NCBI GenBank assembly: GCA_963663395.1
Contig: OY760226.1
Span: forward strand, 3,608,325 to 3,672,324
Reading direction: 5' to 3'
DNA: 64,000 nt
From: Pseudomonadales bacterium
Lineage (GTDB): Bacteria > Pseudomonadota > Gammaproteobacteria > Pseudomonadales > Azotimanducaceae
Made by a program: the position numbers and the translations under genes. Shown piece by piece: positions 14,538 to 47,654 of this stretch (position 1 is its first letter; each line of letters begins with the position of its first letter). Below the pieces are notes generated by a model. That model made no database searches, had not been told where the DNA came from, and saw only the letters and a list, made by a program, of their open reading frames with translations.

Positions 14538-15914
14538 CTACGGCAGCAGCGCGGAAGCTTCCCTCACGTCCTGAACGACATCCAGGCGCAACAGCGAGTC
14601 GATCAACCGGTCGATCTGTTGTTCCGGTATCGGGTGCCTGGCGTATTGCAGGCAATCCTTGAATTTCGCAATGACGTCTTCCTCGGACATCGGGTTGTTC
14701 GGGTGCCCGAAAACGATGTTGAGTCGATCGGAGAAAGCCTGTCCGTCCTTCGTCTGGACTTCAACGATGGCCGGTGTGATCTCGGCAGCGGGGCCAAGGT
14801 CGTCACTGACCCGATATTGCACGCGGCGAATGGCGGCCAGCACATCGCGACTCCGCAGATTCGCCGGGAGAAAATCCGCGATCCGGGGCGTTTTGATTAC
14901 GCCAACGGCAACCGTAAAGAAGAGCGAAAATTTTGCTTGAATGCTCATGGTCGGCGCCCTCTTTTCAACCTCGGGTTCGCAGAACAGGTCTCGCGTTCCC
15001 TCAGAGACGACCAGCGTGATCTGCCTGATGTTCGCCGGCACGATGCTGTTCTGAGCGAGAATCCTGCGGGTTGCCTCCACGTAGCCGTGGGTCAGGCGGC
15101 AACAGGGCCAGGGCTTTAGGCTGACCCCGGCGTGGCGGTACTCCTCCCCCAATCCCGACAGCAGCCGTTCCGCATCAAAGCGGTTGTCGTAGTAGTTTTC
15201 AAAAAAAAGCTCAATCCCGTTGCGGCATGCCTTGACGCCACTCCCGGCCAACAACGCGCACAACACCCCCTCCTTGTTGATGAAACCGTCCCGAATCGCC
15301 CGCAACTCCGACTCCGGCGCCGCGACGGCATCGAGTTGTCCGTGACAGCGGTGCAATGCAAGGCCGAGCGCATTGATCAACTGGCCTTCGCTCAGGCGCA
15401 GCAGCTTGCCGGCGGCAGCGGTCGCGGAGAAGACCCCGAAATTGCTGATCGGAAACCAGCGGTGATCGACGCCGAGCTTGCCGGTGGGGGATGCGGACAG
15501 GCGCGCGCCCAGATCACTGCCGAGGGCAACCGCGGTGATAAACTCCCTGCCGCTCACGTTGCCCAGGCGCTCGGCAACGGCGAGCGCCGCTGGAACGGTT
15601 TGTGCCGACGGATGATGACCCAGGTCGTCGATTGTGTCGTCGTAGTCCAGGACGTGGGCGAAGGAGCCGTTGAGATAGGCAGCCATGATGGCGGAGCCTT
15701 TCTTACCCAGCCCGATCATCGTCGACTGGCCCGGGCCGCTCTCTTGCGTCACGATTTCCGCCAGGCGTTCGCAGGTCGGGTCCAGGCTGGAGGGCGGCAC
15801 CATGACGCCGAGCGTGTCCAGAATGCTGAGCCTCGTTTTTTCCCGAACGTCGACCGGGATGCTGTCGTAATCGGTCGCAGCAATGGAACGCGCTATCGTC
15901 TCAGTCAGATGCAA
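14538..15914 (-). CDS. MmgE/PrpD family protein (2-methylcitrate dehydratase-like fold)
   Basis: 458 aa. Motifs: DSIPVDVREKTRLSILDTLGVM, AAYLNGSFAHVLDYDDT and HPSAQTVPAALAVAE. The start overlaps the stop of the upstream CoA-transferase by 10 nt. Confidence 0.88.
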   Translation of the reverse strand: MHLTETIARSIAATDYDSIPVDVREKTRLSILDTLGVMVPPSSLDPTCERLAEIVTQESGPGQSTMIGLGKKGSAIMAAYLNGSFAHVLDYDDTIDDLGHHPSAQTVPAALAVAERLGNVSGREFITAVALGSDLGARLSASPTGKLGVDHRWFPISNFGVFSATAAAGKLLRLSEGQLINALGLALHRCHGQLDAVAAPESELRAIRDGFINKEGVLCALLAGSGVKACRNGIELFFENYYDNRFDAERLLSGLGEEYRHAGVSLKPWPCCRLTHGYVEATRRILAQNSIVPANIRQITLVVSEGTRDLFCEPEVEKRAPTMSIQAKFSLFFTVAVGVIKTPRIADFLPANLRSRDVLAAIRRVQYRVSDDLGPAAEITPAIVEVQTKDGQAFSDRLNIVFGHPNNPMSEEDVIAKFKDCLQYARHPIPEQQIDRLIDSLLRLDVVQDVREASALLP

Positions 15915-18217
15915 CTGTCATCCCCCTCAGTCTTGCGCCAGACTTCCGCGACCGCCGCTGAGTCAATTTCGTACTCACCTGGCGGCGTACCGTCGCGCCG
16001 TCGTGTACCGCGCCAATCGGTAAAACCGCCGATGAGGCGCAGCCGCCCCACGCTGGCCGAGTGGACCACCTTCGTGTAACGCTGTTCACAAAGAAACGGG
16101 TCGTCGAACTCCACGCGTTCAAGTACCTGACAGGCCGGAACACCCCCCGCGGCCAGCGCGATAACCCAATCCTCTACCGTCCTGCCCGACACAACCTGAG
16201 CCATCGCCGCCGCAAGCGCCGCATCACCGGCGCCGGCAAGGTCGGCCAGCCCCAGGATGTCGAGTAACGTCTCGCGCTGCTCCCGGGTACGCGCCGATAT
16301 CGCCATCCACCGGTCTTGCGCGCGATAGTAGCGCCGGCAAGCATCGGGGCCGGGATGATCCATGCCGCCGAGAGCCCGCCCCGGACGGCCCGGATACCTG
16401 GTCAGCTCACCGCTTTGCAGCAACGTCGAAACTGCCGCGAGCGAGGTGAATACGCGTTGCGCAACACCTCTGGTCTCGCGTACGTAAAGCGCCGCCAGGG
16501 TCCCGAGGGCGCCGACGGCGCCAGTAGTGACATCGTGTACCGGAGCGCCGGCCGTAATCGGCCGACCCTCCCCGCCCTGCACCGAGGCAAGCCCGCTGAG
16601 GGTCTGCAGCAGCGGATCGAATCCCGGAAACTCGGCCCACGCCCCCGTCTGCCCGAACGCGGTGACCGAGCAACGAATGAGATTCGCGTTTGCGCGCGCG
16701 TACACTACGGGCTGCAACCGAAGACGTGCGAGACTGGCAGGGAGCAGGTTGTCAACGGCCGCATCGGCGCGCGCGATCAGCTCGAGAAATACTTCCCGTT
16801 CACCGGCATCGCGAAGGTTGAGCCTGACCGCTTTCTTGTGTTCGTTGACGATGGCGTATGGGGCGGTAAACACGCTGTACGGGTCTCCCGCGGGGCTCTC
16901 CACCTTGATGACTTCCGCACCGTGAGTGCCCAACAGGCTCGACACGAATGGCCCGGCAAGAAACGTCGAAGAATCGACCACTTTCAGGCCCGTGAGCGGC
17001 AGAACCCCTGGCTCCGGCCGCTTTCCCCCGGGTTTGGGGGGCGCCGCGCCCTTCCACAGGTCACGCATGTCGGCGAGGTCTCCCGGCACGGGAACCGGGC
17101 CCGCCCGTTCCGGGGTCTGCTCCATGTCCACGGCAACTCCCGGCATGACAAGCTCGCCCACCAATGCGTGCGCCACCCGTACCGGCGGACAGGCACCCGC
17201 GATCACCTCGCCTTCCAGCCAGGCATCGGGAGCCAGGACCGGCGCCGCGGGCACATCGGCTGCCCGAAACGCCTCCAGCCAATGCGCTGCCGTTCGCGAC
17301 CTGAAGACGGGTTCCAACTCGGCGGCCACCCGGCTCGCGATCTCCGGGCGCATGATGTTCGTGAAGTCGCCGGCCACATCTTCCCGGGCCATCACATCCA
17401 CCCGGTCGAGCACATCGAGCGCCCGGAAGAACAGCTCCGGAGACAGCGCGCCGAGAAATATCCAGCGCTCGTTACTACATTGATACAGGCGGAACTGGCA
17501 CCCTCCGCCGATCAGCTTGCCGGAGGAAACGATGGGCGGGCCGTCGATGGAAGCGGTCATGAGCGTGCACAGCGCCGCCCCTGCGGCCTGCAGGCCGGTG
17601 ACCACGGCAGAGCGCCCCCAGCCATCGCGGGCTCTCGCGAACAGCCCGGCCGCCGCGGCCGACGCTGCCATGGCGCCGTGCAGGTGCAGGCGTGTCGGTA
17701 CCACGGATGCCACCGGCCGCTCCTCGGTGGCGGGGTGATGGGCGGCGAATCCGGAGACCGCATCGAGCAACAATTCATCGTGCGGCAGGTGGCTCCAGCG
17801 GCCGCCCGCCGAGATGGGTGGCATCCATACGTGCACGAGCGCCGGGGCCGCCGTTGCCAATGTTGCGGCATCCAGGCCGTTGCGCTCGAGACACCCCGGA
17901 TGCGTGTCTGCCAGCAGGACGTCCGCGCGCTCCGCCAAGCGGCGTAGTTCAAGGGCATGCTGGGATGGGTCGTCCAATGGGCCGAACAGCACCTTGCCCC
18001 GATTCCAGCAAAGAAATCCCGGCATCGCTTCATCACCGATGCGAGGGGTGCCCCCTCGCGCTCCCCGGCTGAGGGCTCCATCGAGCGGTTGTGCCGATAC
18101 CGGCCTGACGACCTCGGCTCCCAGATCGGCGAGCAGCATGCCTGCGGTCTGTCCGGCGATGCCGGTGCTGAGTTCCAGTACGCGAATGCCGGTCAGGGGC
18201 GGCGGTGCCGTTTTCAT
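15905..18217 (-). CDS. tandem-domain (fused) family III CoA-transferase (CaiB/BaiF/MCR family), 770 aa
   Basis: Lies in ORF 15905..18550; I place the start at ATG 18217 (MKTAPPPLTGIRVLELSTGIAGQTAGMLLADLGAEVV). A second complete domain begins at LPLTGLKVVDSSTFLAGPFVSSLLGTHGAEVIKVE and contains GFDPLLQTLSGLASV...PVHDVTTGAVGALGTLAAL. Confidence 0.85.
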   Translation of the reverse strand: MKTAPPPLTGIRVLELSTGIAGQTAGMLLADLGAEVVRPVSAQPLDGALSRGARGGTPRIGDEAMPGFLCWNRGKVLFGPLDDPSQHALELRRLAERADVLLADTHPGCLERNGLDAATLATAAPALVHVWMPPISAGGRWSHLPHDELLLDAVSGFAAHHPATEERPVASVVPTRLHLHGAMAASAAAAGLFARARDGWGRSAVVTGLQAAGAALCTLMTASIDGPPIVSSGKLIGGGCQFRLYQCSNERWIFLGALSPELFFRALDVLDRVDVMAREDVAGDFTNIMRPEIASRVAAELEPVFRSRTAAHWLEAFRAADVPAAPVLAPDAWLEGEVIAGACPPVRVAHALVGELVMPGVAVDMEQTPERAGPVPVPGDLADMRDLWKGAAPPKPGGKRPEPGVLPLTGLKVVDSSTFLAGPFVSSLLGTHGAEVIKVESPAGDPYSVFTAPYAIVNEHKKAVRLNLRDAGEREVFLELIARADAAVDNLLPASLARLRLQPVVYARANANLIRCSVTAFGQTGAWAEFPGFDPLLQTLSGLASVQGGEGRPITAGAPVHDVTTGAVGALGTLAALYVRETRGVAQRVFTSLAAVSTLLQSGELTRYPGRPGRALGGMDHPGPDACRRYYRAQDRWMAISARTREQRETLLDILGLADLAGAGDAALAAAMAQVVSGRTVEDWVIALAAGGVPACQVLERVEFDDPFLCEQRYTKVVHSASVGRLRLIGGFTDWRGTRRRDGTPPGEYEIDSAAVAEVWRKTEGDDSCI

Positions 18218-18228
18218 GGCATGCGAGT

Positions 18229-18393
18229 CTAGCAGCCCGTGGCAAAAGTCCGGCGTAGCACCGAGAGCGCCGATGCGCCCGCCTGGCAAGGCGCGAGGAG
18301 CGAGAATATCGGGCATATTTGAGCGACGAGCAACGCAGTCAGGCGGGCGCAGCGGCGTTCGAATGCCGGCGGACTTTTGCCACGGGCTGCTAG
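18229..18393. repeat. 165-bp extended imperfect palindrome in a divergent promoter region (24-bp perfect outer arms, 11-bp perfect inner arms)
   Basis: The outer arm CTAGCAGCCCGTGGCAAAAGTCCG at 18229..18252 is the exact reverse complement of 18370..18393. The inner arms are GCGCCCGCCTG (18274..18284) and CAGGCGGGCGC (18340..18350). The centre AATATCGGGCATATT is also symmetric. Confidence 0.85.
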
Positions 18394-18488
18394 CATCGGT
18401 CGAGTCGACGGCTTCAGTGCCGCTTGATGATCGGGGCACATTGCCGTAGAAGCTTAAATCGCCATCCGACTGCAGGGGTGAACGGGGA

Positions 18489-19511
18489 ATGACGACCTTT
18501 GGAATAGCCAGCAAGCCCGAGCGCAAGGACGAGTTCATTCGTTGGGTCACCGAGGCCGAACAAGCCGGTTTCGGCCTGGTCTGTACCGGAGATTCGCCGG
18601 CGCTGCTGCGCGATCAGTACGTGGCCCTGACGCTGCTGGCCCTCAATACCACGCATTGCAAGATCGGCAGCTTCATCACCAACCCGGTGTCCCGGCATCC
18701 CACCATCACGGCAGGTGCGAGCAGCACCCTCAACGAGCTCTCGGGGGGCCGCTTCCGCATCGGCATCAGCACCGGCGACAGCGGCATTCTGAACCTGGGC
18801 CTGAAGCGGGCGACGCTGGCCCGGCTCGAAGAGTACGTGGTGACCATGCAGAGGCTGTGGCGCGATTCCGAAGCCCCGTACAGGGGCGGAACCGCGCGCC
18901 TGGTGTGGACCGACGAACCGGTGCCCATCTACCTGGCGGCCGGCGGCCCCAGGGCCCTGGAACTGGCCGGCCGCATCGCCGACGGGGTCTATGTGACCCT
19001 GGGGCTCGCGCCCGAAGCCATCGACGGCGCCCTGCGCCACCTGGAAATCGGGGCCGGGCAGTCGGGCCGCACACTCGACGATCTCGACATCTGGTGGCAT
19101 GTACGCGCCAACATCGACGACGACTACGAGACCGCGGTGCGCGGTTGCCTGTCACTGCTCGGCGGTATCGCGCACCATACGTTTCAGGCCGGCGTGGAAG
19201 GTAAGTTCCTGCCCCGAAGGTACCAGGCGCCCATAGCTGACTTGGCCCGCCAATACAATTCCCAGCAGCACACGCGCATTGGCGGCGACGACGGCCTCAA
19301 TGCCAACGAGCGACTGGTGGTGGACCTCGGTCTGAAGGATTTTCTTTGCGAGAACTTCGCGTTCGTGGGAACACCATCCGACTGGATTTCCAAAGCGAGG
19401 GAACTGCACGGCCGCGGTGTCACCCAGATCGCTTTCGCCGTCGTGGTGCCTGACATCCATGCCTTCATCAAACAGGTGGGCGATGAGGTGATCCCGCACC
19501 TGCCCGGCTAG
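18489..19511 (+). CDS. LLM class (luciferase-like) flavin/F420-dependent oxidoreductase
   Basis: 340 aa. Motifs: GFGLVCTGDSPALLRD, HCKIGSFITNPVSRHPTITAGASSTLNELSGGRFRIGISTGDS and PIYLAAGGPRALELAGRIADGV. Confidence 0.85.
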   Translation: MTTFGIASKPERKDEFIRWVTEAEQAGFGLVCTGDSPALLRDQYVALTLLALNTTHCKIGSFITNPVSRHPTITAGASSTLNELSGGRFRIGISTGDSGILNLGLKRATLARLEEYVVTMQRLWRDSEAPYRGGTARLVWTDEPVPIYLAAGGPRALELAGRIADGVYVTLGLAPEAIDGALRHLEIGAGQSGRTLDDLDIWWHVRANIDDDYETAVRGCLSLLGGIAHHTFQAGVEGKFLPRRYQAPIADLARQYNSQQHTRIGGDDGLNANERLVVDLGLKDFLCENFAFVGTPSDWISKARELHGRGVTQIAFAVVVPDIHAFIKQVGDEVIPHLPG

Positions 19512-34109: not shown

Positions 34110-35606
34110 TCATGGATTTGTCGATTCCATTTCGCGCTCGATCAACGCACGAACCTCGTTCGACAACACCTTGAACATCGCATTGCGCGGCAGGGCATCT
34201 ACGAATACGACCGCCACGGGCACGCAATACCCGGGTTTGCGCTGTGCAACCCAGGCCTTGAGTTCCGCCGCCGACACCGAGCCGTCCGTGCATCGCACCA
34301 CCGCCGCAGCGGGCACCTGTCCGAGCCGGACATCGTCCAGCCCCACCACCACCGCATCGGCAACCGCCGGGTGCACGCACAGCACCTCGGCCACCTCGTT
34401 GGCGGCGACCTTGAAGCCACCGCGCACCAGCACATCGTCGACCCGGCCCTCGATCCACACGAAACCGTCCTCGTCCATGCATGCGAGGTCGTTGGTGCGT
34501 ATCCAGCCGGCCGGCGCATCGGCCGGACGCCGTGGCGGGTCGGCTTCGAGCAGACCGACTTCGCCCGACGGCAACTCCCTGCCCGTGTCCGCATCCACGA
34601 TGCGCACCTTGTTGTCCGGCAGTGCACGCCCGACACTGCCGCGCTTCTCCTTCACAAGCGCCAGGTCGGTGCCTGCGAACCCCGTCACGGCGCCCAGAAA
34701 CTCCGTTGCACCGTAGGCAGTAATCACCGGTATGCCGTAGGTGGCCTCGAATTCCTCCGCCGTTGCGGGGTCCAGGCGGGCGGACGCCGCGCGGAACACC
34801 GATGCGCCGGACAGGTATTCCCGGGGCACCCGGTTGTCGAGCAGCATGCGAATCACCGCCGGCGGCGCGGCCAACTGTCGCGGTTTGTACGCTCTAACCA
34901 TCTCTGCCCAGCGCCAGATGTCGAAGCGCTCCAGGAGCGCCGTGGGGCGGCCCTTCCAGACCGCCGCCGCCGCACCCATGACGCCGCCCATGCTCACCAG
35001 CGGCACCGCCGAGATGGCCACGCCGCGCTGGTCCGGCGGGCGCGGATTCGCCGGCCGGTCGCCCGCGAAATGCCGGAAAGGCACCGGCACGCGCTTGGGC
35101 GGCCCCGTTGTGCCGCTGGTCAGCATGGTCACCGCGGTGTCGTCGAGCGGCTCGTAGTGGCGGCCCGAGCCCAGGCGCTCGAGCCCCGGAACCACGCGAA
35201 CCGGCAGGTGCCGGTCTCCGGTCAGTTCGATGCCCAGGGTGCCCGTGGCCTGCAGCACTTGCCGAAAACCGGTGCGCCGCCAGTCTTGTGCATCCGCCAC
35301 CAGCACCGCCGGGCGCAAGGCTCCGAGATCTTCACGGATCGCCGCATCCGGCTGAATGGGCGTGGCCAGAACGGCGCAACGGCGCATGGCAAGTACGGAA
35401 ACATAGGCGCCGAAGCAGTGCGGACGCTGTCTGAGCACCAGGCCAACGCCTTCCCGGTCGGCAACCCCTGCGGCGGTGAGCGCATCGCGCAGCCCGTCGC
35501 GTATGCGGGCGAGATCCCCCCAGGTCCAGGTTCCGCCCTCGTAGAACACCGCCGGCGCATCGGGCTCGTTCCGAAAAAGCTCATCGATGCGCTCGTTGAT
35601 CTCCAT
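34110..35606 (-). CDS. AMP-dependent synthetase/ligase (acyl-CoA synthetase)
   Basis: 498 aa. Motifs: P-loop MLTSGTTGPPKRVP, ITAYGATE, WIRTNDLACMDEDGFVWIEGRVDDVLVRGGFKV. Confidence 0.92.
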   Translation of the reverse strand: MEINERIDELFRNEPDAPAVFYEGGTWTWGDLARIRDGLRDALTAAGVADREGVGLVLRQRPHCFGAYVSVLAMRRCAVLATPIQPDAAIREDLGALRPAVLVADAQDWRRTGFRQVLQATGTLGIELTGDRHLPVRVVPGLERLGSGRHYEPLDDTAVTMLTSGTTGPPKRVPVPFRHFAGDRPANPRPPDQRGVAISAVPLVSMGGVMGAAAAVWKGRPTALLERFDIWRWAEMVRAYKPRQLAAPPAVIRMLLDNRVPREYLSGASVFRAASARLDPATAEEFEATYGIPVITAYGATEFLGAVTGFAGTDLALVKEKRGSVGRALPDNKVRIVDADTGRELPSGEVGLLEADPPRRPADAPAGWIRTNDLACMDEDGFVWIEGRVDDVLVRGGFKVAANEVAEVLCVHPAVADAVVVGLDDVRLGQVPAAAVVRCTDGSVSAAELKAWVAQRKPGYCVPVAVVFVDALPRNAMFKVLSNEVRALIEREMESTNP

Positions 35607-38140: not shown

Positions 38141-39407
38141 CAACAGAGTGAGCACAATGATTGACGCAACCGACGAAACGCCTCGAGTCCCCGATCACGT
38201 GCCCCCGGAACTGGTGCGTTCCAGCCAGGGCTTCGATGATGTCGCCAGCGACTGGCGCAACCCGTTTGCCGACACGGAGAACGTTTTCAAGGCGGACTAC
38301 CCGCCGATATTCTTCGTTCCCGGCTACCCCATACCCATTGTCGGGTCCACGGCTCTTGGAACCTGGATGATCACCCGGCACGATGACATTCGCGAGGTCT
38401 ATCAGACGCCGGCCATTTTCTCCAGCCACGGCATCGCCGGCTATCAGCACCTGGCCGGCGAGGACTGGGAGATGCTGCCGCTGTCGGTCGATGCGCCCCT
38501 GCACAGGCACTATCGATTGCCGCTGGTTGCGTCGGTGTCGCCCAAGGCCGTAAATGCGATGGACGGCTTGATCCGTTCGCGGGCGAATTCGCTCATCGAC
38601 AACTTCATCGACCGGGGCAAGTGCGAGTTCACTAGCGAGTTCGGGCGCCCGTTTCCAATCTCCATCTTCATGCGGCTGATGGGCTTTCCCGTGGAAGAGA
38701 TGTACGAGAAGTTCCTGGTTTGGGAAAAGCACATTCTGAGCGGTGACGACCTGACGCTGGAGGAGCGCGGCGAGGGAATCAAGGAGTGCATTGCCTGGCT
38801 CCGGGCGTTCATTGCAGAACGGGAACGGAATCCACGGGACGACCTCACCAGCAAGATTATCCAGGCGCAGATCGACGGTCGCCTCATTAACGCCGATGAA
38901 AAAATCGGCCTGGTGTTCATGCTGTTCGTCGGCGGCCTCGATACCATCGTCGGCAGCCTGAGCCTCTGGTTTCCCTGGCTTTGCGCCCACCCGGACTACC
39001 GGGCCAGGCTCATCGAGCAACCGGAACTCATTCCGGGCGCCGTGGAGGAATTGTTGCGCATGAATCCCCTGGTGAGTTCACCCCGAACCGTAACCCGGGA
39101 CATCGAATTCCGCGGGGTAACCATGAAAGCGGGTGACGTGGTGTTGCTGCTGAGTGCTACCGGCAACTTCGACGAGCGCAAATTCACCTGCCCACGCACC
39201 GCGGACTTCGAGCGTAGCCCGAATCCGCACATGACGCTGGCGGCCGGCCCGCACCGCTGTCTTGGTTCTCACCTGGCGCGCCGTGAACTCCAGGTTGCCC
39301 TGGAAACCTGGCTGCAGCGTATTCCGAACTTTCAGATCGAGGACGGCTTTGAAGTGGTCGCCCATGCGGGGCTGCAGGCAGTGCGCGAATTGCGCCTTGT
39401 CTGGTAG
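38127..39407 (+). CDS. cytochrome P450
   Basis: 426 aa. An alternative start at ATG 38157 (MIDATDETPRVPDHVPPELV) resembles the N-terminus of the other P450 better. Motifs: I-helix FVGGLDTIVGSL, EELLRM (ExxR), and Cys loop HMTLAAGPHRCLGSHLARRE. Confidence 0.9.
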   Translation: MSSNDNRVSTMIDATDETPRVPDHVPPELVRSSQGFDDVASDWRNPFADTENVFKADYPPIFFVPGYPIPIVGSTALGTWMITRHDDIREVYQTPAIFSSHGIAGYQHLAGEDWEMLPLSVDAPLHRHYRLPLVASVSPKAVNAMDGLIRSRANSLIDNFIDRGKCEFTSEFGRPFPISIFMRLMGFPVEEMYEKFLVWEKHILSGDDLTLEERGEGIKECIAWLRAFIAERERNPRDDLTSKIIQAQIDGRLINADEKIGLVFMLFVGGLDTIVGSLSLWFPWLCAHPDYRARLIEQPELIPGAVEELLRMNPLVSSPRTVTRDIEFRGVTMKAGDVVLLLSATGNFDERKFTCPRTADFERSPNPHMTLAAGPHRCLGSHLARRELQVALETWLQRIPNFQIEDGFEVVAHAGLQAVRELRLVW

Positions 39408-39644
39408 GGGCAGCCCCTCCTGCAATGCGGTCCAACGGCCAGAATACCCGACAACACCCTGCAAAAGACGCCGGGCGCTCGCGACTTCGAGACGCGCAGG
39501 CGCGTGACGCAGGACGACTCGGTCCAGTTGTATTGCCTGCCGGTGTGATGCCGCACGACAAAAGCACGCGCACTGCCGGATGGGTTCGGCCCTGTCGTTT
39601 GAGTACCCTTCTGCTGGAGTCATGACAAAAAACGAGGACGCAAA

Positions 39645-42074
39645 GTGAATTCCACCCCCCGCGCTGACAGCCGCCCGCTGCCGCTCGCCGGCATCCGGGT
39701 GCTGGACCTGTCCGGCGAGACCGCACCCGTCTGCGGTCAGATGCTCACCCTGTTCGGCGCCGACGTGGTGCTCGCCGAGCGCGGACCGAGTCGCGACCGC
39801 AGCGGACACTTTGCCTGGCTGGCGGCAAATGCCGGCAAGCGCAGCCTGGCACTGGACGAGGCCGGTTCGGCCGATGTGCTGGCCGAACTATGCCGCGTGG
39901 CCGACGTGGTGATCGACGGCGACCCCGGGAACCCGCTTGATTTCGACCCCCGCGTCGCGTCTCCGGGCCTCATCCACGTCACCGTCAGTCCCTTCGGCCT
40001 CGCCGGGCCGCATGCCGACTGGCTCGACAGCGAGCTCGTTGCCCAGGCGGCCGGCGGGCTGCTGTTTCTTTCCGGCGACGAGGACCATCCCCCGGCACAG
40101 ATCGGTGTCCCGCTGGCCACCGGCGTTGCAGGCGCCCAGGCCGCGTGCGCCGTGCTCATCGCCCTGGCCCAGCGGCGCCGGACCGGCGCCGGCGCGCGCA
40201 TCGACGTGTCGCGCCAGGAGAGCGTCGCCTGCCTGCTTTACGTCACCGAGTACATGGCTCACATCGACAAGCGCTCCGGCCGGCGGGGCGAAGTGCCGCT
40301 GACCTTCAGTGGCCGCAAGCTCACGCGCAAGGCATTCTGGCGCTGCGCTGACGGCTACCTCACCTGGACCCTCTGGACCGGCCCGGGCATGGGGCGCAAG
40401 AACGAGCCCATGTTCGAGTGGATGCGCGAGGAAGGCGTGCCCGAGGCCGCGCAATTGCTGGCCATGCCCTGGGAGAAGATGGGCACCGGCGATCTGACCG
40501 TGGAGCTGATCGAGCACGTCAACCGGGTGATGGGAGACTTTTTCGCACAGCGTACCAAGCGGCAGATCGACCGCCAGGCGCTTGAGCGACGCATATTGCT
40601 ATTCGTGGTGCAGAGCCTGGAAGAAGTGGCCAACAGCGAACAGCTCCTTGCCCGGGAGGCATTCGATTCGTTCGAACTGCCCGGTGGCCGAGCCGTCAGT
40701 ATCGTTTCCCGGCCGGCGCGCTCAACCGCCTACGCGGTGGAAGTTGCGGGCAAGGCGCCGGCGTGGGGCGCCGATACCGAAGCCGTGCGCACGCAGTGGC
40801 TTGCCCATGCGCCCACACCCGCCACGCCATCACCTGTCTCATCCCCGACGCCATCCGGCTCACTCCCGTTCACGGGCATTCGCGTGCTCGATTTCGGCTG
40901 GGCCATCGTCTCCCCGCTCACCACCCGCATGCTGTCGATCTTCGGCGCCGACGTGGTCAAGGTGGAGTTTCGCGGGCGGCCCGATACCCTGCGCATGACC
41001 GGCCCCTATCCCCAGGGCCACCCGTCGATGGACGGCAGTTCGGTATTCGTGAGCGTCAACGCCGGCAAGCGCAGCCTCGGCGTCGACATCAACCATCCCC
41101 AGGGCCGCGAACTGCTGTATCGCATGGCCGGTCAGGCGGATGTGGTGTGTGAGAACTTTACCCCGGGGACCGCCGTGCGGCTCGGCTATGGCTACGATAA
41201 ATTCCGCGCCATCCGCGAAGACATCATCATGCTGAGCCTGTCGATGCAGGGGCAGACCGGTCCGCGTGCCGATCAGCCCGGGCTTGGCAACCACCTGCAG
41301 GCCATGAGCGGCCTCGACTTCATGACCGGCTACCCCGATGGCCGTCCCCAGGGGCCCAACCAGGTACTGCCCGACTTCGTCGGGCCCTGGATGGCCATCG
41401 CCGCATTGACCTGCGCCCTGGAGCACCGGCACCGAACCGGGCAGGGGCAGGGCCAGTACCTGGACATCGCCCAGTTCGAGTCGATCATGCTCTACCTGCA
41501 GCCGGCGCTCATCGAATACGGGGTCACCGGGGCCTCGCCGGAGCGGCGCGGCAACAGTTCGCCCAGCCACGCACCACACGGCGTCTATCCGGGCAAGGGC
41601 GACGAGCGCTGGATCGCCATTGCCATCACCTGCGATGCCGAATGGCGGGCACTGCACGCACGCCTGCCACAGGCCCTGCGCGGGCGCTTCAATGCCGGCC
41701 TGTCCACCCCGAAACGGCTCGACCGCGCGACGGAACTGGATGCGGCACTCGCCGAGTGGACCGCCGCGCACGACCCGGGCGAGCTGGCGGGCAGCTTGCA
41801 GGCGCATGGCGTGCGCGCCCATCTGGTCTGCACGGGTCAGGACCTGCTCGACGACCCGCAACTCGCTTTCCGCGGGCACTACTTCACCCGCGAGCACGCC
41901 AAGCTCGGGGCGTCGCTGATGGTCGCCAACTCGTTTCGAATCAGCAGCGCCGAGCCCCTTTTCAAGCCCGGGCCGCGCTATGCGAGTGACTCCGTACAGG
42001 TGCTGGAGGACTGGCTGCAGGTCGAAGCGGACGAACTCGCCGACCTGCTGGCCACGGGGGCCATCGTCACGTAG
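39645..42074 (+). CDS. tandem-domain (fused) family III CoA-transferase, 809 aa
   Basis: From GTG 39645, with GAGGA upstream. Domain 1 starts LPLAGIRVLDLSGETAPVCGQMLTLFGADVV. Domain 2 starts LPFTGIRVLDFGWAIVSPLTTRMLSIFGADVVKVE and contains LQAMSGLDFMTGYPDGRPQGPNQVLPDFVGPWMAIAALTCAL. Confidence 0.85.
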   Translation: MNSTPRADSRPLPLAGIRVLDLSGETAPVCGQMLTLFGADVVLAERGPSRDRSGHFAWLAANAGKRSLALDEAGSADVLAELCRVADVVIDGDPGNPLDFDPRVASPGLIHVTVSPFGLAGPHADWLDSELVAQAAGGLLFLSGDEDHPPAQIGVPLATGVAGAQAACAVLIALAQRRRTGAGARIDVSRQESVACLLYVTEYMAHIDKRSGRRGEVPLTFSGRKLTRKAFWRCADGYLTWTLWTGPGMGRKNEPMFEWMREEGVPEAAQLLAMPWEKMGTGDLTVELIEHVNRVMGDFFAQRTKRQIDRQALERRILLFVVQSLEEVANSEQLLAREAFDSFELPGGRAVSIVSRPARSTAYAVEVAGKAPAWGADTEAVRTQWLAHAPTPATPSPVSSPTPSGSLPFTGIRVLDFGWAIVSPLTTRMLSIFGADVVKVEFRGRPDTLRMTGPYPQGHPSMDGSSVFVSVNAGKRSLGVDINHPQGRELLYRMAGQADVVCENFTPGTAVRLGYGYDKFRAIREDIIMLSLSMQGQTGPRADQPGLGNHLQAMSGLDFMTGYPDGRPQGPNQVLPDFVGPWMAIAALTCALEHRHRTGQGQGQYLDIAQFESIMLYLQPALIEYGVTGASPERRGNSSPSHAPHGVYPGKGDERWIAIAITCDAEWRALHARLPQALRGRFNAGLSTPKRLDRATELDAALAEWTAAHDPGELAGSLQAHGVRAHLVCTGQDLLDDPQLAFRGHYFTREHAKLGASLMVANSFRISSAEPLFKPGPRYASDSVQVLEDWLQVEADELADLLATGAIVT

Positions 42075-42267
42075 CTCGACAGGAACATTACCGCGCATGC
42101 GTGAGCGCACCAGCGTCTGCACCATGGCCTGGGCCGGCGGCAGGTGAGGGCACAGGTGTCCCGAGCGGTCCGAACAGCGGGCGCCCGGCGGCTGAATTGC
42201 GCCGGATTGTCGAACGCGACTAGTATCCGGCTACCCGGCGCTCGAACGGCCGCAAGCAGCGAACCCC

Positions 42268-44538
42268 ATGACTGACGAAATCGTCGTCAACACCGTCTGT
42301 GCCCACAACTGTGGCGGACGCTCGCCACTGGCCTGCACCGTACGCGACGGCCGCCTGGTGCGTGTGGCGCCCGCCGACCACCCGGATACCCGCTATCAGG
42401 GTTTGTGTGTGCGCTGCCTGACCTTGCCCCAATGGGTTTACGCAGAGGAGCGCATCGCTACGCCCCTGCGGCGTACGGGCGGGCGCGGCAACGGCGAATT
42501 CGAGCCGGTAAGCTGGGACGATGCGCTGGACGAGATCGCCGGGCGGTTCACGGCCCTGATCGATGCCCAAGGCGCCGAAAGCATCGCGTTTTCCCGCACC
42601 TCCGGGTCATCGCAACTGGCCAACTACAGCCGCCTGGCGGCGCTGATCGGCGGCGGCGGCAGCGCCAACTTCTTCGGCGGCGTGGACATGGCCGTGCACA
42701 TGGGCCTTAACAACGTGCTGGGTTTCAAGGGCATGTTCGGGCAGGCCGCCAACGAGTGGACAGACCGGCCCAACGCCAGAAACTACCTGGTGTGGGGCAA
42801 CAATCCCGCGGAAACGTCCATGACCTCCATGCGTTTCCTGCTCGATGCGCGCGCAGCCGGCACCGAGATCATCGTCATCGACTCGCGTTACTCGGCAACC
42901 GCCATGCACGCCACCTGGTGGATCGCACCGCGCCCGGGCACCGACCTGGCTCTGGCGCTGGGCATGTTGCACGTACTCATCGACGAACAACTGATCGATG
43001 AATCGTTCGCCATCGCACACACGGTCGGCCCGTTGCTGGTGCGCAAGGACAACGGCAGGTTTCTGCGCGAGTCCGATGTGTCTGCTACAGGATCGAGCAA
43101 TGGGTATCTCGTGCTCGACGCTGTCGGCACCCCCGGCAATTTCTCGGCGGTTTCCGCCCCCCGGCTGCGCGGGCACTTCGAAGTCGGCGGCCACGCGGTG
43201 AAAACGGCCTTCACCTTGCTCACCGAACTGGTGGCCGGCTATCCGCCCGACCGCGTCGCCGACATCACGGGGGTCGCGGCCGGCGAGATCCGCGAACTCG
43301 CCCGGAGTTACGCCAACGGCCCTTCCACCATCGGCTTCGGCTATGGCGTCGATCGCTACCTGCACGCCGAGGTGCTCACTCGCGCCGCCGCCACCATGGC
43401 GGTACTCACCGGCAACATCGGCAAGCCGGGCAGCGGAGTCGGCGTGCAAAGCCACGGCATCGGCAGCCGCATGGCCGCGCTCGGCCCCACGCCGCCGCTA
43501 CCGGACTGGGCCGGGACCGAGTCGATTCCCAATATCGAAGTCGGTTCCCGGGACCTGCCGGTGCGCGCCCTGTTCTGCCAGGGCGACTGGCTGAACCAGC
43601 GCATGGCGCACATGGAGCGCGCCCGCGAATACCTCCAGAGCCTGGAGTTCGTGGTGACCGTGGATCACTTCTGGCAGACCACCGCCGAGTGGTCCGACAT
43701 CGTGCTGCCCGCCTCCACCTTCCTGGAAGGCCGCGAACGGGTGCGCGACGTGGCGATGGCCGGCAACAGCGTGATGTTGCGCCAGCCGGTCATCCCGCCG
43801 GTGGGCGATTCGCGCCCCGACAGCGACATCGAAAAGGCGCTGGCCGAACGGCTGGGGCTGGGCGAATACTTCGAAGTCACCTGCGAAGACATGGTGCGCG
43901 CGCAGATCGATGGCTCCACCGACCCGGCCATGCAGGGCATCACCTTCGATGGCCTGCTCGCCCGGGGTGGCAGCGCCGCACTCAAGGTGCCACGCACGCC
44001 CAACGTGCAGTTCCCCGATCTCAGGTTTCCCACGGCCACCGGCCTTGCGGAGTTCTACGTGGAAGCGCTCGCGCCGCTCGGGGAAGCCCTGCCCGTATAC
44101 CGGGAAGACCACGAAGCCCTTCCCGGCCACCCCAACGCGGACGAGTACCCGTTGGTCCTAGTGCAAGCCCACGCCCGGCAACGGGCCCACTCGACCTTCT
44201 TCAACACCCGCTGGACCCTGGAACTCTGGCCGGAGCCGGTGCTGGAGATCAGTCCCGCCGATGCCGGCGCACGGGGACTGACCGATGGTGACCTGGCCGA
44301 AGCATTCAACGCACGCGGAAATGTCGTGGCGCGCGTGGCGGTCAGTGCCGACTACCCCCCCGGCATGGCCAACCTGTCGGAGGGGTGGAAGCAGAACCAG
44401 TACCTGGCGGGAAACGTGCAGGCACTGACCAACGGCGACATCAACCCTGCGCAGCAGCACCTGTGGGGCCACGCCAACATTCCCTTCTACGACACCCGGG
44501 TTGAAGTGCGGCCGTGGCGACAGGAGCCATCGCAATGA
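42268..44538 (+). CDS. molybdopterin (Mo/W-bisPGD) oxidoreductase catalytic subunit, DMSO-reductase superfamily, no Tat signal
   Basis: 756 aa. N-terminal Fe-S motif NTVCAHNCGGRSPLACTV...QGLCVRCL. Typical blocks: EFEPVSWDDALDEIA, NYLVWGNNPAETS, IVIDSRYSATAMHATWWIAPRPGTDLAL, FVVTVDHFWQTTAEWSDIVLPASTFLE, and C-terminal PLVLVQAHARQRAHSTF...ISPADAGARGLTDGDL. An in-frame stop at 42193 with no start codon after it excludes a longer N-terminus. Confidence 0.88.
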   Translation: MTDEIVVNTVCAHNCGGRSPLACTVRDGRLVRVAPADHPDTRYQGLCVRCLTLPQWVYAEERIATPLRRTGGRGNGEFEPVSWDDALDEIAGRFTALIDAQGAESIAFSRTSGSSQLANYSRLAALIGGGGSANFFGGVDMAVHMGLNNVLGFKGMFGQAANEWTDRPNARNYLVWGNNPAETSMTSMRFLLDARAAGTEIIVIDSRYSATAMHATWWIAPRPGTDLALALGMLHVLIDEQLIDESFAIAHTVGPLLVRKDNGRFLRESDVSATGSSNGYLVLDAVGTPGNFSAVSAPRLRGHFEVGGHAVKTAFTLLTELVAGYPPDRVADITGVAAGEIRELARSYANGPSTIGFGYGVDRYLHAEVLTRAAATMAVLTGNIGKPGSGVGVQSHGIGSRMAALGPTPPLPDWAGTESIPNIEVGSRDLPVRALFCQGDWLNQRMAHMERAREYLQSLEFVVTVDHFWQTTAEWSDIVLPASTFLEGRERVRDVAMAGNSVMLRQPVIPPVGDSRPDSDIEKALAERLGLGEYFEVTCEDMVRAQIDGSTDPAMQGITFDGLLARGGSAALKVPRTPNVQFPDLRFPTATGLAEFYVEALAPLGEALPVYREDHEALPGHPNADEYPLVLVQAHARQRAHSTFFNTRWTLELWPEPVLEISPADAGARGLTDGDLAEAFNARGNVVARVAVSADYPPGMANLSEGWKQNQYLAGNVQALTNGDINPAQQHLWGHANIPFYDTRVEVRPWRQEPSQ

Positions 44539-45212
44539 CCCGGTGGGCCATGACATACGATCTCGACCGCTGCATCGGCTGCTGGGCCTGCGCGGTGGCC
44601 TGCAAGGCGGAAAACAGCGTCGGCGAGGGCCTCTGGTGGCAGCAGGTCGACACCGTCGGCAGCACGCAACGCGACACCGCCGCCGGCACATTCCCCCAAC
44701 TTGACAAGCACTACCGGCCGCGCAACTGCTTCCATTGCGCCGAGCCGCCCTGCCTGCCCGCCTGCCCGGAGGGCGCCATCAGCCAACGCCCGGACGGCAT
44801 CGTGGAAATCGACTACGAAGCCTGCACCGGCTGCGGCGAATGCATTCCGGCCTGTCCCTACGATGCCATCAGCCTCAACCGGGCCGCTCCCGTCCTCCCG
44901 CACGGGCTGGAAAACGGGCACGGCGATGCCGCCGTGCCACCACGGCGAGCAGGCGTCGTGGAAAAATGCACGTTCTGCACACACCGCCTCGACCGCGGCG
45001 ACGACCCCGCCTGCGTTGCCGCCTGCCCGACCCAGGTCATCAGCTTCGGCGACCTCGACGATGCCGGCAGCACCGTCGCCGAGCATGCTGCCAGACACGA
45101 GGCGCACCGTCCCCGGGAGTCTTCCGGAGCCCAGCCTTCGGCCTGGTACCTCCCCTATTCCATCGGCTCGCGCCAGAGACGCAGTGGCGGCAGCCAGAAG
45201 CCTGCGTCGTAG
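44535..45212 (+). CDS. 4Fe-4S dicluster-domain electron-transfer subunit (DmsB/PsrB/NrfC-like), four Cys groups
   Basis: Lies in ORF 44514..45212. ATG 44535 overlaps the alpha stop (ATGA), and CAGGAG lies upstream. Cys groups: CIGCWACAVACKAEN, CFHCAEPPCLPACP, CTGCGECIPACP and CTFCTHRLDRGDDPACVAACP. Confidence 0.88.
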   Translation: MTRWAMTYDLDRCIGCWACAVACKAENSVGEGLWWQQVDTVGSTQRDTAAGTFPQLDKHYRPRNCFHCAEPPCLPACPEGAISQRPDGIVEIDYEACTGCGECIPACPYDAISLNRAAPVLPHGLENGHGDAAVPPRRAGVVEKCTFCTHRLDRGDDPACVAACPTQVISFGDLDDAGSTVAEHAARHEAHRPRESSGAQPSAWYLPYSIGSRQRRSGGSQKPAS

Positions 45213-45302: not shown

Positions 45303-46502
45303 ATGGTTGACCTGTGCCCGGACGACACCCCGGAACTAAAGGCGTGGCGCCACGAGGTTCGCGACTTCCTCGAAAAAGCGCTGCCCGAGCCCTGGACTTT
45401 CTGGTACGACTACGACGAGAACCCCGAGTCCTGGGACCGCTATCTCGCCTTCTGGCGCCAGGTAGGAAAGAAGCGGTGGACAGCCCTGACCTGGCCCGCC
45501 GAGTACTACGGCCTCGGCCGCCCGGCCATCGAGAAATGGATCCTGGAAGAAGAGTTCGTCAACCACGATGTGCCCACTTACCCGGTGATCGGCATGCACG
45601 TCGCCGGCTACCTGTTGCGCCTCGGCACCCACGGACAACGCCGGCGCCACCTGAAGGGCATCGCTGACTCCACCGTGCTCTGGGGCGAGGGGTACAGCGA
45701 GCCAGGTGCGGGGTCTGACCTGGCACGGCTGACCACCAGGGCGCACCGCGACGGCGACGACTGGGTGATCAACGGCCAGAAGACTCTCGGCACCGCTGCC
45801 CACTTCTGCCAGTGGATGTCGGTCCTGGCGCGCACCGACCCCGACGCGCCGCGGCATGCGGGCATTTCCTGTTTCCTGGTGCCGCTGGATGCCCCGGGCG
45901 TCGAGATGCTGCCCCTGGACAACATGGCGGACGGCCGCCAGAACATGACCTACTTCGATGACGTGCGCGTACCGGCGGACAGCCTGCTCGGCGATGAGAA
46001 CCAGGCATGGACGCAGATCTGGTTCGGCATGGGCGGCGAACGGCTCGACAACGCCGGCCCCAGCTTCGGCCCCCACGCCATGCGCATCGTGCCACTCTTG
46101 AAACGGGTCATCCGCTACTGCACCCAGACCACCCGCGGTGGCCGTCGTCTCGCCGACGACCCGGTGGTGCGCCAACAGCTCGGCGAACTCATGATGGGTG
46201 TGGAGGCCATCAAGCTGCAGGCCTATGAGATGTACGGCAACGCACGATCGGCCAGGCCGAACCGGTTCGGCGAGGCGTCGATGCACATGCACCAGGCCGT
46301 ATTCAAGGAATTCTGGCCGCACCTGGCGCAGGTGTGCATGGAAATCGTCGGCCCCATGGCGCAGATACAGGGCGGCCGATGGGCGCAGCTCAACGGCGAC
46401 ATCGAGCACTACTTCAGAGCCTCGTTCGGCAACCACGCCGGCGGCACATCGCAGCTCAAGCGCATGGTGCTGGCCACCCGCGGTCTCAACCTGCCGCGCT
46501 GA
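45303..46502 (+). CDS. acyl-CoA dehydrogenase (FadE-like, large subunit of pair)
   Basis: 399 aa. Motifs: LWGEGYSEPGAGSDLARLTT, DGDDWVINGQKTLGT, MGGERLD and HAGGTSQLKRMVLATRGLNLP. Confidence 0.9.
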   Translation: MVDLCPDDTPELKAWRHEVRDFLEKALPEPWTFWYDYDENPESWDRYLAFWRQVGKKRWTALTWPAEYYGLGRPAIEKWILEEEFVNHDVPTYPVIGMHVAGYLLRLGTHGQRRRHLKGIADSTVLWGEGYSEPGAGSDLARLTTRAHRDGDDWVINGQKTLGTAAHFCQWMSVLARTDPDAPRHAGISCFLVPLDAPGVEMLPLDNMADGRQNMTYFDDVRVPADSLLGDENQAWTQIWFGMGGERLDNAGPSFGPHAMRIVPLLKRVIRYCTQTTRGGRRLADDPVVRQQLGELMMGVEAIKLQAYEMYGNARSARPNRFGEASMHMHQAVFKEFWPHLAQVCMEIVGPMAQIQGGRWAQLNGDIEHYFRASFGNHAGGTSQLKRMVLATRGLNLPR

Positions 46503-46517
46503 AATCGGGAAAACGCC

Positions 46518-47654
46518 ATGGGCATCGATCTGCAACTCAGCGAAGAGCAGGAACTCATCGGCACTACGGCCAACGAGTTTTTCGGCAAATACTGCCCGCC
46601 GGAACTGGTGCGCGAATACGAAACGGGCGCATCGGACTTCCCCGGGGAACTCTGGTCACGGATGGCCGAACTGGGCTGGCTCGGCATGCCGTTCCCGGAA
46701 CGCCATGGCGGGCTGGGCCTGGCCATGCTGGACATGGTTCCGCTGTACGTCGAACTCGGCCGGCACCTGGTGCCCTGCCCGCTTCTCGATACCGCCGCCC
46801 TTGCCGGCGGTCTCATCAGTGCCCTCGGCAGCGAGGACCAGAAAAAAGAGCTGCTGGGGGGCATTGCCCGGGGCGAGTCCGTGATTACCCCCGCCATCAT
46901 GGAGCCCGACGGCGGTTACGGACCCGAGGCCGTGCAGCTCGAAGCCAGGCCCGACGGATCGCAATTCGTGCTAAGCGGCACCAAGGTGCTCGTCGCCTGT
47001 GCGCGCTCCGCGGACAAGCTGCTTTGCGCTGCCCGCACGGCAACCCATGCGAACGGTAACGGCATTACCCTGTTCCTGGTCGACCCCCGGGCAGCCGGCG
47101 CAACCATCGAGCGCATGCCCAACATTGCCGGCTACCCGCTGTATGCGGTTACGTTCGACCGGGTGTCCGTACCGCGGGAAGCCCTGGTCGGCGACCCTGA
47201 CGCGGCATGGCCGACCCTGTACGAGACGACGATGAAAGCCGCGGTATTGCAATCGGCGATGGTGGTCGGCGCTGGCGAGCGCGTACTGGCAATGACCACC
47301 GACTACGCCAGGGAGCGGGAGCAGTTTGGCCAGGCCATCGGCAGGTACCAGGCGGTGCAGTACCTCTGTACCGACATCGCCATACACTGCCACTGGACCC
47401 GCCTGCTCACCCTGCAGGCCGCCTGGCGCATCGACTCCGGCCGGCGCTTTTTCCGCGAGGCGGCGCTTGCCAAGGCTTCCGCCAGCCGCGGCGCCGCCGC
47501 CATGACCTTCGCCGCCCACGAGGTGCATGCCGGCATTGCCTTTGTCGTCGATTACGACCTGCAGCTATACACCCGCCGCGCCAAGCACTGGGAATACAAC
47601 CTGGGAGACCTGCGCTACCACCTCGACCGGGCCTGCGCGGAAAGCGGCCTGTAG
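46518..47654 (+). CDS. acyl-CoA dehydrogenase family protein, small/degenerate partner of a pair
   Basis: 378 aa. Motifs: LWSRMAELGWLGMPFPERHGGLGL, REQFGQAIGRYQAVQYL and VHAGIAFVVDYDLQLYTRRAK. It has IMEPDGGYG instead of SEPxAGSD, and no Glu at either base position (VLQSAMVVG, EYNLGD). Confidence 0.85.
   Translation: MGIDLQLSEEQELIGTTANEFFGKYCPPELVREYETGASDFPGELWSRMAELGWLGMPFPERHGGLGLAMLDMVPLYVELGRHLVPCPLLDTAALAGGLISALGSEDQKKELLGGIARGESVITPAIMEPDGGYGPEAVQLEARPDGSQFVLSGTKVLVACARSADKLLCAARTATHANGNGITLFLVDPRAAGATIERMPNIAGYPLYAVTFDRVSVPREALVGDPDAAWPTLYETTMKAAVLQSAMVVGAGERVLAMTTDYAREREQFGQAIGRYQAVQYLCTDIAIHCHWTRLLTLQAAWRIDSGRRFFREAALAKASASRGAAAMTFAAHEVHAGIAFVVDYDLQLYTRRAKHWEYNLGDLRYHLDRACAESGL

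Follow-up and report, generated by a model that had tools for sequence, protein, structure and literature searches.

A predicted single-chain relative of the BbsEF-type CoA-transferases in a Pseudomonadales bacterium

Introduction

Coenzyme A (CoA) transferases of family III (CaiB/BaiF) that carry two family III domains in tandem were published as a class by Dong et al. 2018, after Todd et al. 2007. This class counted 2,401 members in 2017, with a wide occurrence in Actinobacteria and Proteobacteria, and is marked by a poorly conserved linker between the domains and by a conserved aspartate in the C-terminal domain (PMC6006322). Its characterized members are DddD and PtmU4; when the aspartate in the C-terminal domain of PtmU4 was mutated, activity went down 125-400-fold (PMC6006322). 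Other family III enzymes are built from two separate polypeptides, only one of which carries the catalytic aspartate. Examples are BbsEF, from anaerobic toluene degradation (PDB 9fn0, 9fol, 9fun), and the succinyl-CoA:o-phthalate CoA-transferase (PMC9516798, PMC13040137). Here, we analyzed a two-domain gene (P0001) at 39645..42074 (+) of a 64,000-nucleotide stretch of the genome of a Pseudomonadales bacterium (assembly GCA_963663395.1, contig OY760226.1, positions 3,608,325 to 3,672,324 of the forward strand), which we call the window, and whose coordinates are used throughout unless another contig or locus is named. The gene encodes an 809-aa protein and is an uncharacterized member of the large class that has already been named. 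Judging from its sequence, a structure model and analogy with the enzymes above, the protein is probably a BbsEF-type heteromeric family III CoA-transferase contained in a single chain.

Domain architecture and catalytic positions

The profile PF02515 (CoA_transf_3) matches the 809-aa protein in two stretches with an E-value of 1.6e-130 and 436 bits, far above the curated cut-off of 23.3 bits, which places the protein in family III. The sequence-only reading from which this analysis started had described two full family III domains, and the profile bears this out. In a six-frame scan of the whole genome, which also provided the per-domain bit scores, the N-terminal domain (aa 13-378; 39681..40778 (+)) covered model positions 1-366 with 152 bits, and the C-terminal domain (aa 409-771; 40869..41957 (+)) covered model positions 2-353 with 288 bits. 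Between the two, and outside both matches, lies a linker of ~30 residues that is rich in Pro, Ser and Thr (aa 379-408; 40779..40868 (+)).

The two domains differ at the position that corresponds to Asp169 of Frc and CaiB and to Asp178 of BbsF, where an aspartate is present in the C half (Asp577) and absent from the N half (Thr159). Asp577 (codon 41373..41375 (+)), which lies within the motif VLPDFVG, pairs with Asp178 of BbsF in the alignment with PDB 9fn0_B, the best PDB sequence match of the C half (E 2.9e-52). The title of PDB entry 9fol ("D178-CoA adduct") names this BbsF residue as the one that forms the CoA adduct, and Asp577 is therefore the predicted catalytic nucleophile; the column holds Asp in 115 out of 115 two-domain relatives. 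Thr159 (codon 40119..40121 (+)), within GVPLATGV, stands opposite the Asp of the Brucella formyl-CoA transferase 10uh_A and opposite Tyr171 of BbsE (9fn0_A), these two being the best PDB sequence matches of the N half (E 1.5e-17 for BbsE). The earlier description of a C half that keeps its catalytic Asp thus stands, while its "Ala or Thr" for the N half settles as Thr159. Position 159 is variable: Y/W/F/T/A/E/R/L are the commonest residues among the 115 two-domain relatives, and T/R/A/I/K/H/L are found among 30 orthologs. The N half is nonetheless under selection and functional rather than decaying, because its conservation comes close to that of the C half (mean identity to the orthologs of 68% and 71%, respectively, with 45% for the linker).

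Relationship of the two halves to BbsE and BbsF

For the origin of the two halves, we used a maximum-likelihood (ML) tree of 67 sequences, containing the halves of 10 fusions from the same genome and of 9 distant relatives, 26 single-domain paralogs, BbsE, BbsF and 10uh_A. The N half fell into a clade of 15 N halves together with BbsE and the single-domain paralog g540791 (support 98/92, inner node 100/99), and the C half into a clade of 15 C halves together with BbsF and the paralog g539559 (99/97). The E-type and F-type clades are congruent in their internal branching. In neither of the two fused genes of the window (the second lies at 15905-18217(-)) is the N half the sister of its own C half. 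The halves did not arise by duplication in place, one of the two origins that had been suggested for them: in the tree, the N half has BbsE-type proteins as its companions, and the C half has BbsF-type ones. Because they group with E-type and F-type subunits, respectively, the 809-aa protein is best described, as far as its sequence tells, as a BbsE-like and a BbsF-like partner of an E-F heteromer fused into one chain.

The two paralogs that joined BbsE and BbsF in these clades, g540791 and g539559, are themselves neighbors. At C1:539559-542041, outside the window, they form a pair of overlapping single-domain genes in which the catalytic column holds Asp in the first gene and Tyr in the second, in the manner of a split BbsEF-type heteromer. 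The gene order of this pair is opposite to the order of the halves in the fused proteins. The downstream member, g540791, has BbsE as its best PDB match (6e-45).

A tblastn search against plasmids returned a further split pair, which lies on plasmid 2 of Aromatoleum aromaticum EbN1 (L085, 7998-10402) and consists of two CoA-transferase genes with a 4-nt overlap, located beside UbiX and UbiD. It aligns collinearly with the halves of the fused protein, at 34.6% identity and with 91% of the query covered. The catalytic column is occupied by Tyr in its first gene and by Asp in its second, and the joining of these overlapping genes would give the architecture of the fused protein. When the pair was added to the tree, both clades were reproduced, with the first subunit in the E-type and the second in the F-type clade. 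From the gene context and the two papers, rather than from an annotation of the record, we infer that this pair is the succinyl-CoA:o-phthalate CoA-transferase (PMC9516798, PMC13040137). In this phthalate-type enzyme, the catalytic aspartate is kept by the second subunit only. Unlike the fused gene, the EbN1 genes are split and lie in a phthalate/UbiD decarboxylase cluster. None of the plasmid matches was labeled as dddD.

Across all these proteins, one partner lacks the catalytic Asp and the other has it: the non-catalytic partners carry Tyr (Tyr171 of BbsE, the first EbN1 subunit, g540791) or, in the N half, Thr159, and the catalytic ones carry Asp (Asp178 of BbsF, the second EbN1 subunit, Asp577 of the C half). 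The likeness to BbsEF thus extends from the equivalent positions (D577 to D178, T159 to Y171) to the placement of the halves in the same two clades and to BbsF as the best match of the C half in both sequence and fold. Three differences set the protein apart from BbsEF. It is a single chain with a linker rather than two polypeptides, a feature that also separates it from the phthalate-type enzyme; the identity is ~25-31%; and its gene lies among P450s and luciferase-like monooxygenase (LLM) oxidoreductases in a sponge-associated gammaproteobacterium, whereas BbsEF belongs to anaerobic toluene degradation. Split forms are intermingled with fused ones in either clade, so that the first event may have been a fusion or a fission.

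The structural model agrees with this relationship. AlphaFold2, run on all 809 residues with an alignment of 115 sequences, gave a mean predicted local distance difference test (pLDDT) score of 93.5 and a predicted template modeling (pTM) score of 0.95. Besides the first six residues, confidence dips most clearly in the linker (pLDDT 57 at residues 391-400), where the model has no secondary structure from ~residue 388 to 412. Because the pTM of 0.95 holds over the whole chain, the two halves are predicted to form one rigid body with a defined mutual arrangement, as expected of an intramolecular pseudo-dimer. In the Foldseek ranking, BbsF came first (9fn0_D, target-normalized TM-score, TMt, of 0.93), followed by the Brucella formyl-CoA transferase and human SUGCT, with MCR and Mct lower. 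The pTM together with the TMt to BbsF indicates a confident fold with a fixed packing of the domains, in which the two halves may interlock as in the dimers of the family.

Integrity of the reading frame

The fusion of the two CoA-transferase domains is no assembly artifact, because independent contigs cross the junction without indels: the domain junction lies within single contigs of three independent studies, which include a sponge metagenome and show 0-3 substitutions and 0 indels there. In addition, 30 full-length orthologs of 46-99% identity, from many assemblies, have the same length (~800 aa). The check for an artifact that had been proposed for the fusion therefore speaks against one, and the 809-aa open reading frame (ORF) with its linker is intact in independent assemblies. 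The gene starts with GTG, and the orthologs begin at the same M/V-N-S-T-P position; a Shine-Dalgarno-like GAGGA, as read from the sequence, is located 6 nt upstream of the start (39634..39638 (+)). Scans for promoters and terminators gave no informative signal. The GC content at third codon positions (GC3) is 0.84, which is coding-like and typical for genes of the window. The stretch from 39400 to 44600 was found in runs from at least 10 studies, including sponge metagenomes and one viral-fraction metagenome. One run (X1) held two strain variants that differ by ~4-5% substitutions, and by no indels, in the region of the N domain and linker.

Proposed reaction and alternatives

We propose that the two halves pack as one intramolecular pseudo-dimer, in which the N half would be the BbsE-like non-catalytic partner and the C half the BbsF-like catalytic unit, so that each polypeptide would hold one active site. 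Canonical family III chemistry at this single site is most likely. Asp577 would attack the thioester of the donor acyl-CoA, giving a mixed anhydride and then an aspartyl-CoA thioester, as in formyl-CoA transferase, after which CoA would end on the carboxylate of the acceptor acid to yield the product acyl-CoA of the pathway. That product would feed the neighboring acyl-CoA dehydrogenase pair and enoyl-CoA hydratases without the spending of ATP. The CoA-transfer activity, the single active site and the role in a pathway are inferred here from the architecture, the residue pattern, the phylogeny, the confidently predicted single-body fold and the conservation, all of which were shown here. For the substrates, we tentatively suggest that CoA comes from succinyl-CoA and that the acceptor is a dicarboxylic acid of a bulky or substituted kind, a pairing that is possible rather than probable. 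It is suggested by analogy, because BbsEF and the phthalate enzyme use such substrates, and because the acyl-CoA dehydrogenases next door look PimCD-like.

Several points weigh against this proposal. The donor and acceptor are derived only from distant characterized relatives (~30-35% identical) and from family matches below threshold. Both characterized two-domain enzymes, DddD and PtmU4, do more than simple CoA transfer, so that canonical transfer is not assured. Finally, a look-up for RNA evidence of co-transcription found no RNA-labeled run, the runs with the sequence having a library kind that is unrecorded or is probably DNA.

Among the alternatives, the one that survives best, and which we still consider unlikely, is a non-canonical chemistry on a CoA ester, with the protein acting as a DddD-like transferase/lyase or as a PtmU4-like, thioacid-forming sulfur transferase, and the N half supplying an extra function. 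The strong conservation of the N half among orthologs would fit a function beyond scaffolding, and an ortholog of 58% identity adjoins two acyl-CoA ligases. However, the nearest characterized relatives in sequence, BbsEF and the phthalate enzyme, are plain transferases. In the thioacid group, moreover, a PtmA3-type ligase lies no more than 2 genes away in >90% of the members (PMC6006322), whereas the ligase nearest to the CoA-transferase gene (34110-35606(-)) is separated from it by three genes and lies on the opposite strand, in divergent orientation. With no ligase within two genes, a thioacid cassette could be ruled out on gene context. Likewise, the neighbors that were scanned (a major facilitator superfamily (MFS) transporter, P450s, a molybdenum (Mo) enzyme, acyl-CoA dehydrogenases, crotonases, a short-chain dehydrogenase/reductase (SDR), an LLM oxidoreductase and a ligase) include neither the LysR regulator nor the BCCT-type transporter of the dimethylsulfoniopropionate (DMSP) operon (PMC7174347), and are catabolic genes of the beta-oxidation type rather than such an operon. 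The lack of an adjacent PtmA3-type ligase and of a DMSP-type operon thus distinguishes the gene from both PtmU4 and DddD, as these are described in the literature. The aspartate of PtmU4 is residue 430, as against Asp577 here, which suggests a shorter N-terminal part in PtmU4.

An intramolecular CoA-transferase of the Mct type, or a CoA "mutase" that shifts CoA between the carboxylates of one dicarboxylic acid, is very unlikely. Family III does include such enzymes (PDB 8apq, 7xkg), and the known members of the E/F clades act on dicarboxylates. Yet the model for 2-methylfumaryl-CoA isomerase matches weakly (71 bits versus a cut-off of 725), the Mct structures are low-ranking matches of the model (TMt of ~0.80 versus 0.93 for BbsF), and the gene context holds no specific pointer to an Mct-like activity.

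The sequence-only reading had also allowed for an MCR-like (AMACR-like) racemase acting on alpha-methyl-branched acyl-CoA esters. MCR shares the family III fold and gives weak sequence matches (E ~1e-18), and the island could plausibly process branched lipids. The catalytic pair of MCR, His126/Asp156, argues strongly against this, as the residues at the position of the His are Ser129 (N half) and Leu547 (C half). Within the genome, His and Asp occur together only in the MCR paralogs g1804876 and g4790623 (E 1e-105 or better to MCR/Far), and the 809-aa protein lies far from these genuine paralogs in the ML tree; a racemase is therefore highly improbable. Weaker still is the idea of a decaying pseudogene or of two adjacent genes wrongly joined: a one-base error could mimic a fusion of genes such as the EbN1 pair, with its 4-nt overlap, but the indel-free contigs of three studies, the 30 orthologs of ~800 aa, a dedicated linker of ~30 residues instead of an overlap and a GC3 of 0.84 leave it a negligible probability.

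Two-domain paralogs in the genome and the second fused gene

The genome (5.87 Mb, one contig) holds 36 family III genes in the six-frame scan, 26 of them single-domain and 10 two-domain. In an alignment to the hidden Markov model (HMM), none of the 10 N halves has Asp as its catalytic-column residue (these are F, Q, L, T, S, S, V, W, V and A), while the catalytic Asp is found in all 10 C halves, in one of them after a realignment of 2 residues. Single-domain paralogs have the Asp in 25 of 26 cases, the exception being g540791 with its Tyr. Thus, the degenerate-N, catalytic-C layout is not peculiar to the island but common to all 10 two-domain paralogs and to the published class (PMC6006322), with which the 809-aa protein shares the tandem family III domains, a linker of low conservation and a catalytic Asp that is confined to the C-terminal domain. 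The presence of two fused genes within 25 kb, read earlier as a sign that the island handles CoA for two acids, says little given 36 family III genes in the genome. Seven of the 36 sit within 3.60-3.74 Mb, which is ~2.4% of the genome, and the number as a whole amounts to a large paralog expansion, like that of SAR202.

Two of the two-domain paralogs (C1:5108847-5110823(-) and C1:5816712-5818916(+)) have a truncated N domain that covers only model positions ~136-353. Both branch early in the E-type and F-type clades, and their short N part recalls PtmU4 (Asp430).

The fused architecture is old, which was one of the two options of the earlier reading: its bearers include Gammaproteobacteria, Chloroflexi, Acidimicrobiia, Actinomycetes, Myxococcota and one archaeal metagenome-assembled genome (MAG). 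Close orthologs of the 809-aa protein (70-86% identity) come from Pseudomonadales and gammaproteobacterial MAGs, followed by a Chloroflexi MAG at 46%, beyond which identities are <=38%.

The second fused gene of the window, 15905-18217(-), has the same layout, as had been stated, with Leu at the catalytic position of its N half and Asp in its C half. The two proteins were said to be only distantly similar, and indeed BLASTP aligns them at 26-31% identity in partial local alignments only. Both halves of the 15905-18217 protein fall outside the E/F superclade of the ML tree, on long branches, together with three other fusions of the same genome (class B). The two fusions of the window are not recent duplicates of each other, and they may go back to one ancient fusion or to two. 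The ML tree favors a separation of the two lineages by 19-20 log-likelihood units and in this way leans to two fusions, while approximately unbiased (AU) tests, which allow one, did not reject the joining of the E-type clade with the 15905-18217 N half (p 0.22) or with all four class-B N halves (p 0.098), nor that of the F-type clade with all four class-B C halves (p 0.11). A further constraint, with all 19 N halves as one clade, gave p 0.00012, but it was mis-specified, as it forced the nested split BbsE-type proteins outside, and is not evidence for two fusions. Of the half-domain phylogeny that had been suggested earlier, one part is therefore settled, in that the two N halves did not come out as sisters of their own C halves, whereas for a single clade of N halves separation is favored by ML and joining is not rejected by the AU test.

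The longest ORF of the second fused gene (15905-18550(-)) has 881 aa, with the first family III domain beginning at residue 118, and the 770-aa start at 18217 is plausible. Its 3' end is overlapped by its operon partner (14538-15914(-)), which encodes an MmgE/PrpD-family protein rather than a ligase and hints at a di- or tricarboxylate substrate for that operon.

Gene neighborhood

Upstream of the CoA-transferase gene lie a gene for an MFS transporter and one for a cytochrome P450 (38127..39407 (+), Pfam p450), the latter separated from it by a 237-nt gap; farther upstream are genes for an LLM oxidoreductase, an acyl-CoA ligase, an SDR and a crotonase. Downstream, after a gap of 193 nt, which confirms the earlier placement of the gene directly upstream of a Mo enzyme, follow the alpha subunit of a bis-molybdopterin guanine dinucleotide (bis-MGD) enzyme (42268-44538 (+)) and its 4Fe-4S beta subunit (44514-45212 (+)), the Pfam families matched by the two being Molybdopterin, Molydop_binding, Fe4S4 and Fer4. 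The enzyme belongs to the dimethyl sulfoxide (DMSO) reductase family, is cytoplasmic and lacks a twin-arginine translocation (Tat) signal, and has perchlorate reductase PcrA as its nearest PDB match (4.8e-60). Next come a large and a small acyl-CoA dehydrogenase that form a PimC/PimD-like pair (45303..47654 (+), Pfam ACAD domains), whose best NCBIfam matches are the large and small subunits of pimeloyl-CoA dehydrogenase, below the cut-off, and then a second P450 and a crotonase.

Comparison with the loci of orthologs separates constant from variable parts of this arrangement. The order MFS-P450-CoA-transferase is retained in L001, L002 and L022, and the acyl-CoA dehydrogenase pair is conserved in L001, L002 and L003. 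Mo genes are located near the CoA-transferase gene in 3 of 4 close relatives (L001, L002, L003), each time with a different intervening gene, and a conserved operon with the Mo enzyme is therefore only partly true. The intervening genes encode an Amidohydro_2 protein (L001:12510-13865), an LLM-like protein (L002:12495-13343(-)) and an MFS transporter (L003:12451-13725(-)), where the window has only the 193-nt spacer; the junction between the CoA-transferase and Mo genes is a hot spot of gene turnover. No Mo genes were found within 10 kb of the CoA-transferase in L022 and L004, and none beside it in L083 and L084. In the locus of the 58%-identical ortholog (L081), which holds the two acyl-CoA ligases mentioned above, a 719-aa cytoplasmic molybdopterin oxidoreductase (L081:15041-17200(-)) lies 2.4 kb from the ortholog, with a Mo enzyme of the xanthine oxidase family also nearby. 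The molybdopterin oxidoreductase is a different enzyme from that of the window, because the two share only 29% identity over 247 residues. Orthologs at 47-48% identity neighbor a MaoC-like dehydratase, a crotonase, a PNPOx-like protein and an aldehyde dehydrogenase. Acyl-CoA enzymes neighbor the CoA-transferase in every ortholog context that we inspected, and acyl-CoA metabolism is the only theme common to them all. The link with the Mo enzyme is lineage-specific, being confined to close gammaproteobacterial relatives, and no more than suggestive.

A coupling of the two enzymes can nevertheless be imagined. The CoA-transferase could make a CoA ester for the adjacent cytoplasmic, Tat-less Mo enzyme, which would hydroxylate or dehydrogenate this activated lipid or dicarboxylate without O2. 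The pathway would regenerate succinyl-CoA as the donor, so that a sponge symbiont would run a bbs-like cycle that needs no ATP. To our knowledge, the bis-MGD family has no known member with such a reaction, and we regard this coupling as doubtful.

Implications

The tie to the split BbsE/BbsF heteromers explains why the N half of the fused proteins is always without the aspartate, as it is either the descendant or the ancestor of a non-catalytic partner. This tie covers the main body of the two-domain class, for which PDB 9fn0 and 9fol provide a structural template, and it offers a first guess at the chemistry (succinyl-CoA as donor, a bulky dicarboxylate as acceptor) for thousands of unannotated proteins. 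If the CoA-transferase serves the Mo enzyme beside it, this would help to identify the substrate of that enzyme. For the organism, the presence of 36 family III genes, 10 of them fused, in a genome from sponge-associated samples fits a use of ATP-free CoA activation for degrading recalcitrant lipids, a strategy that has been proposed for SAR202 (PMC5395668).

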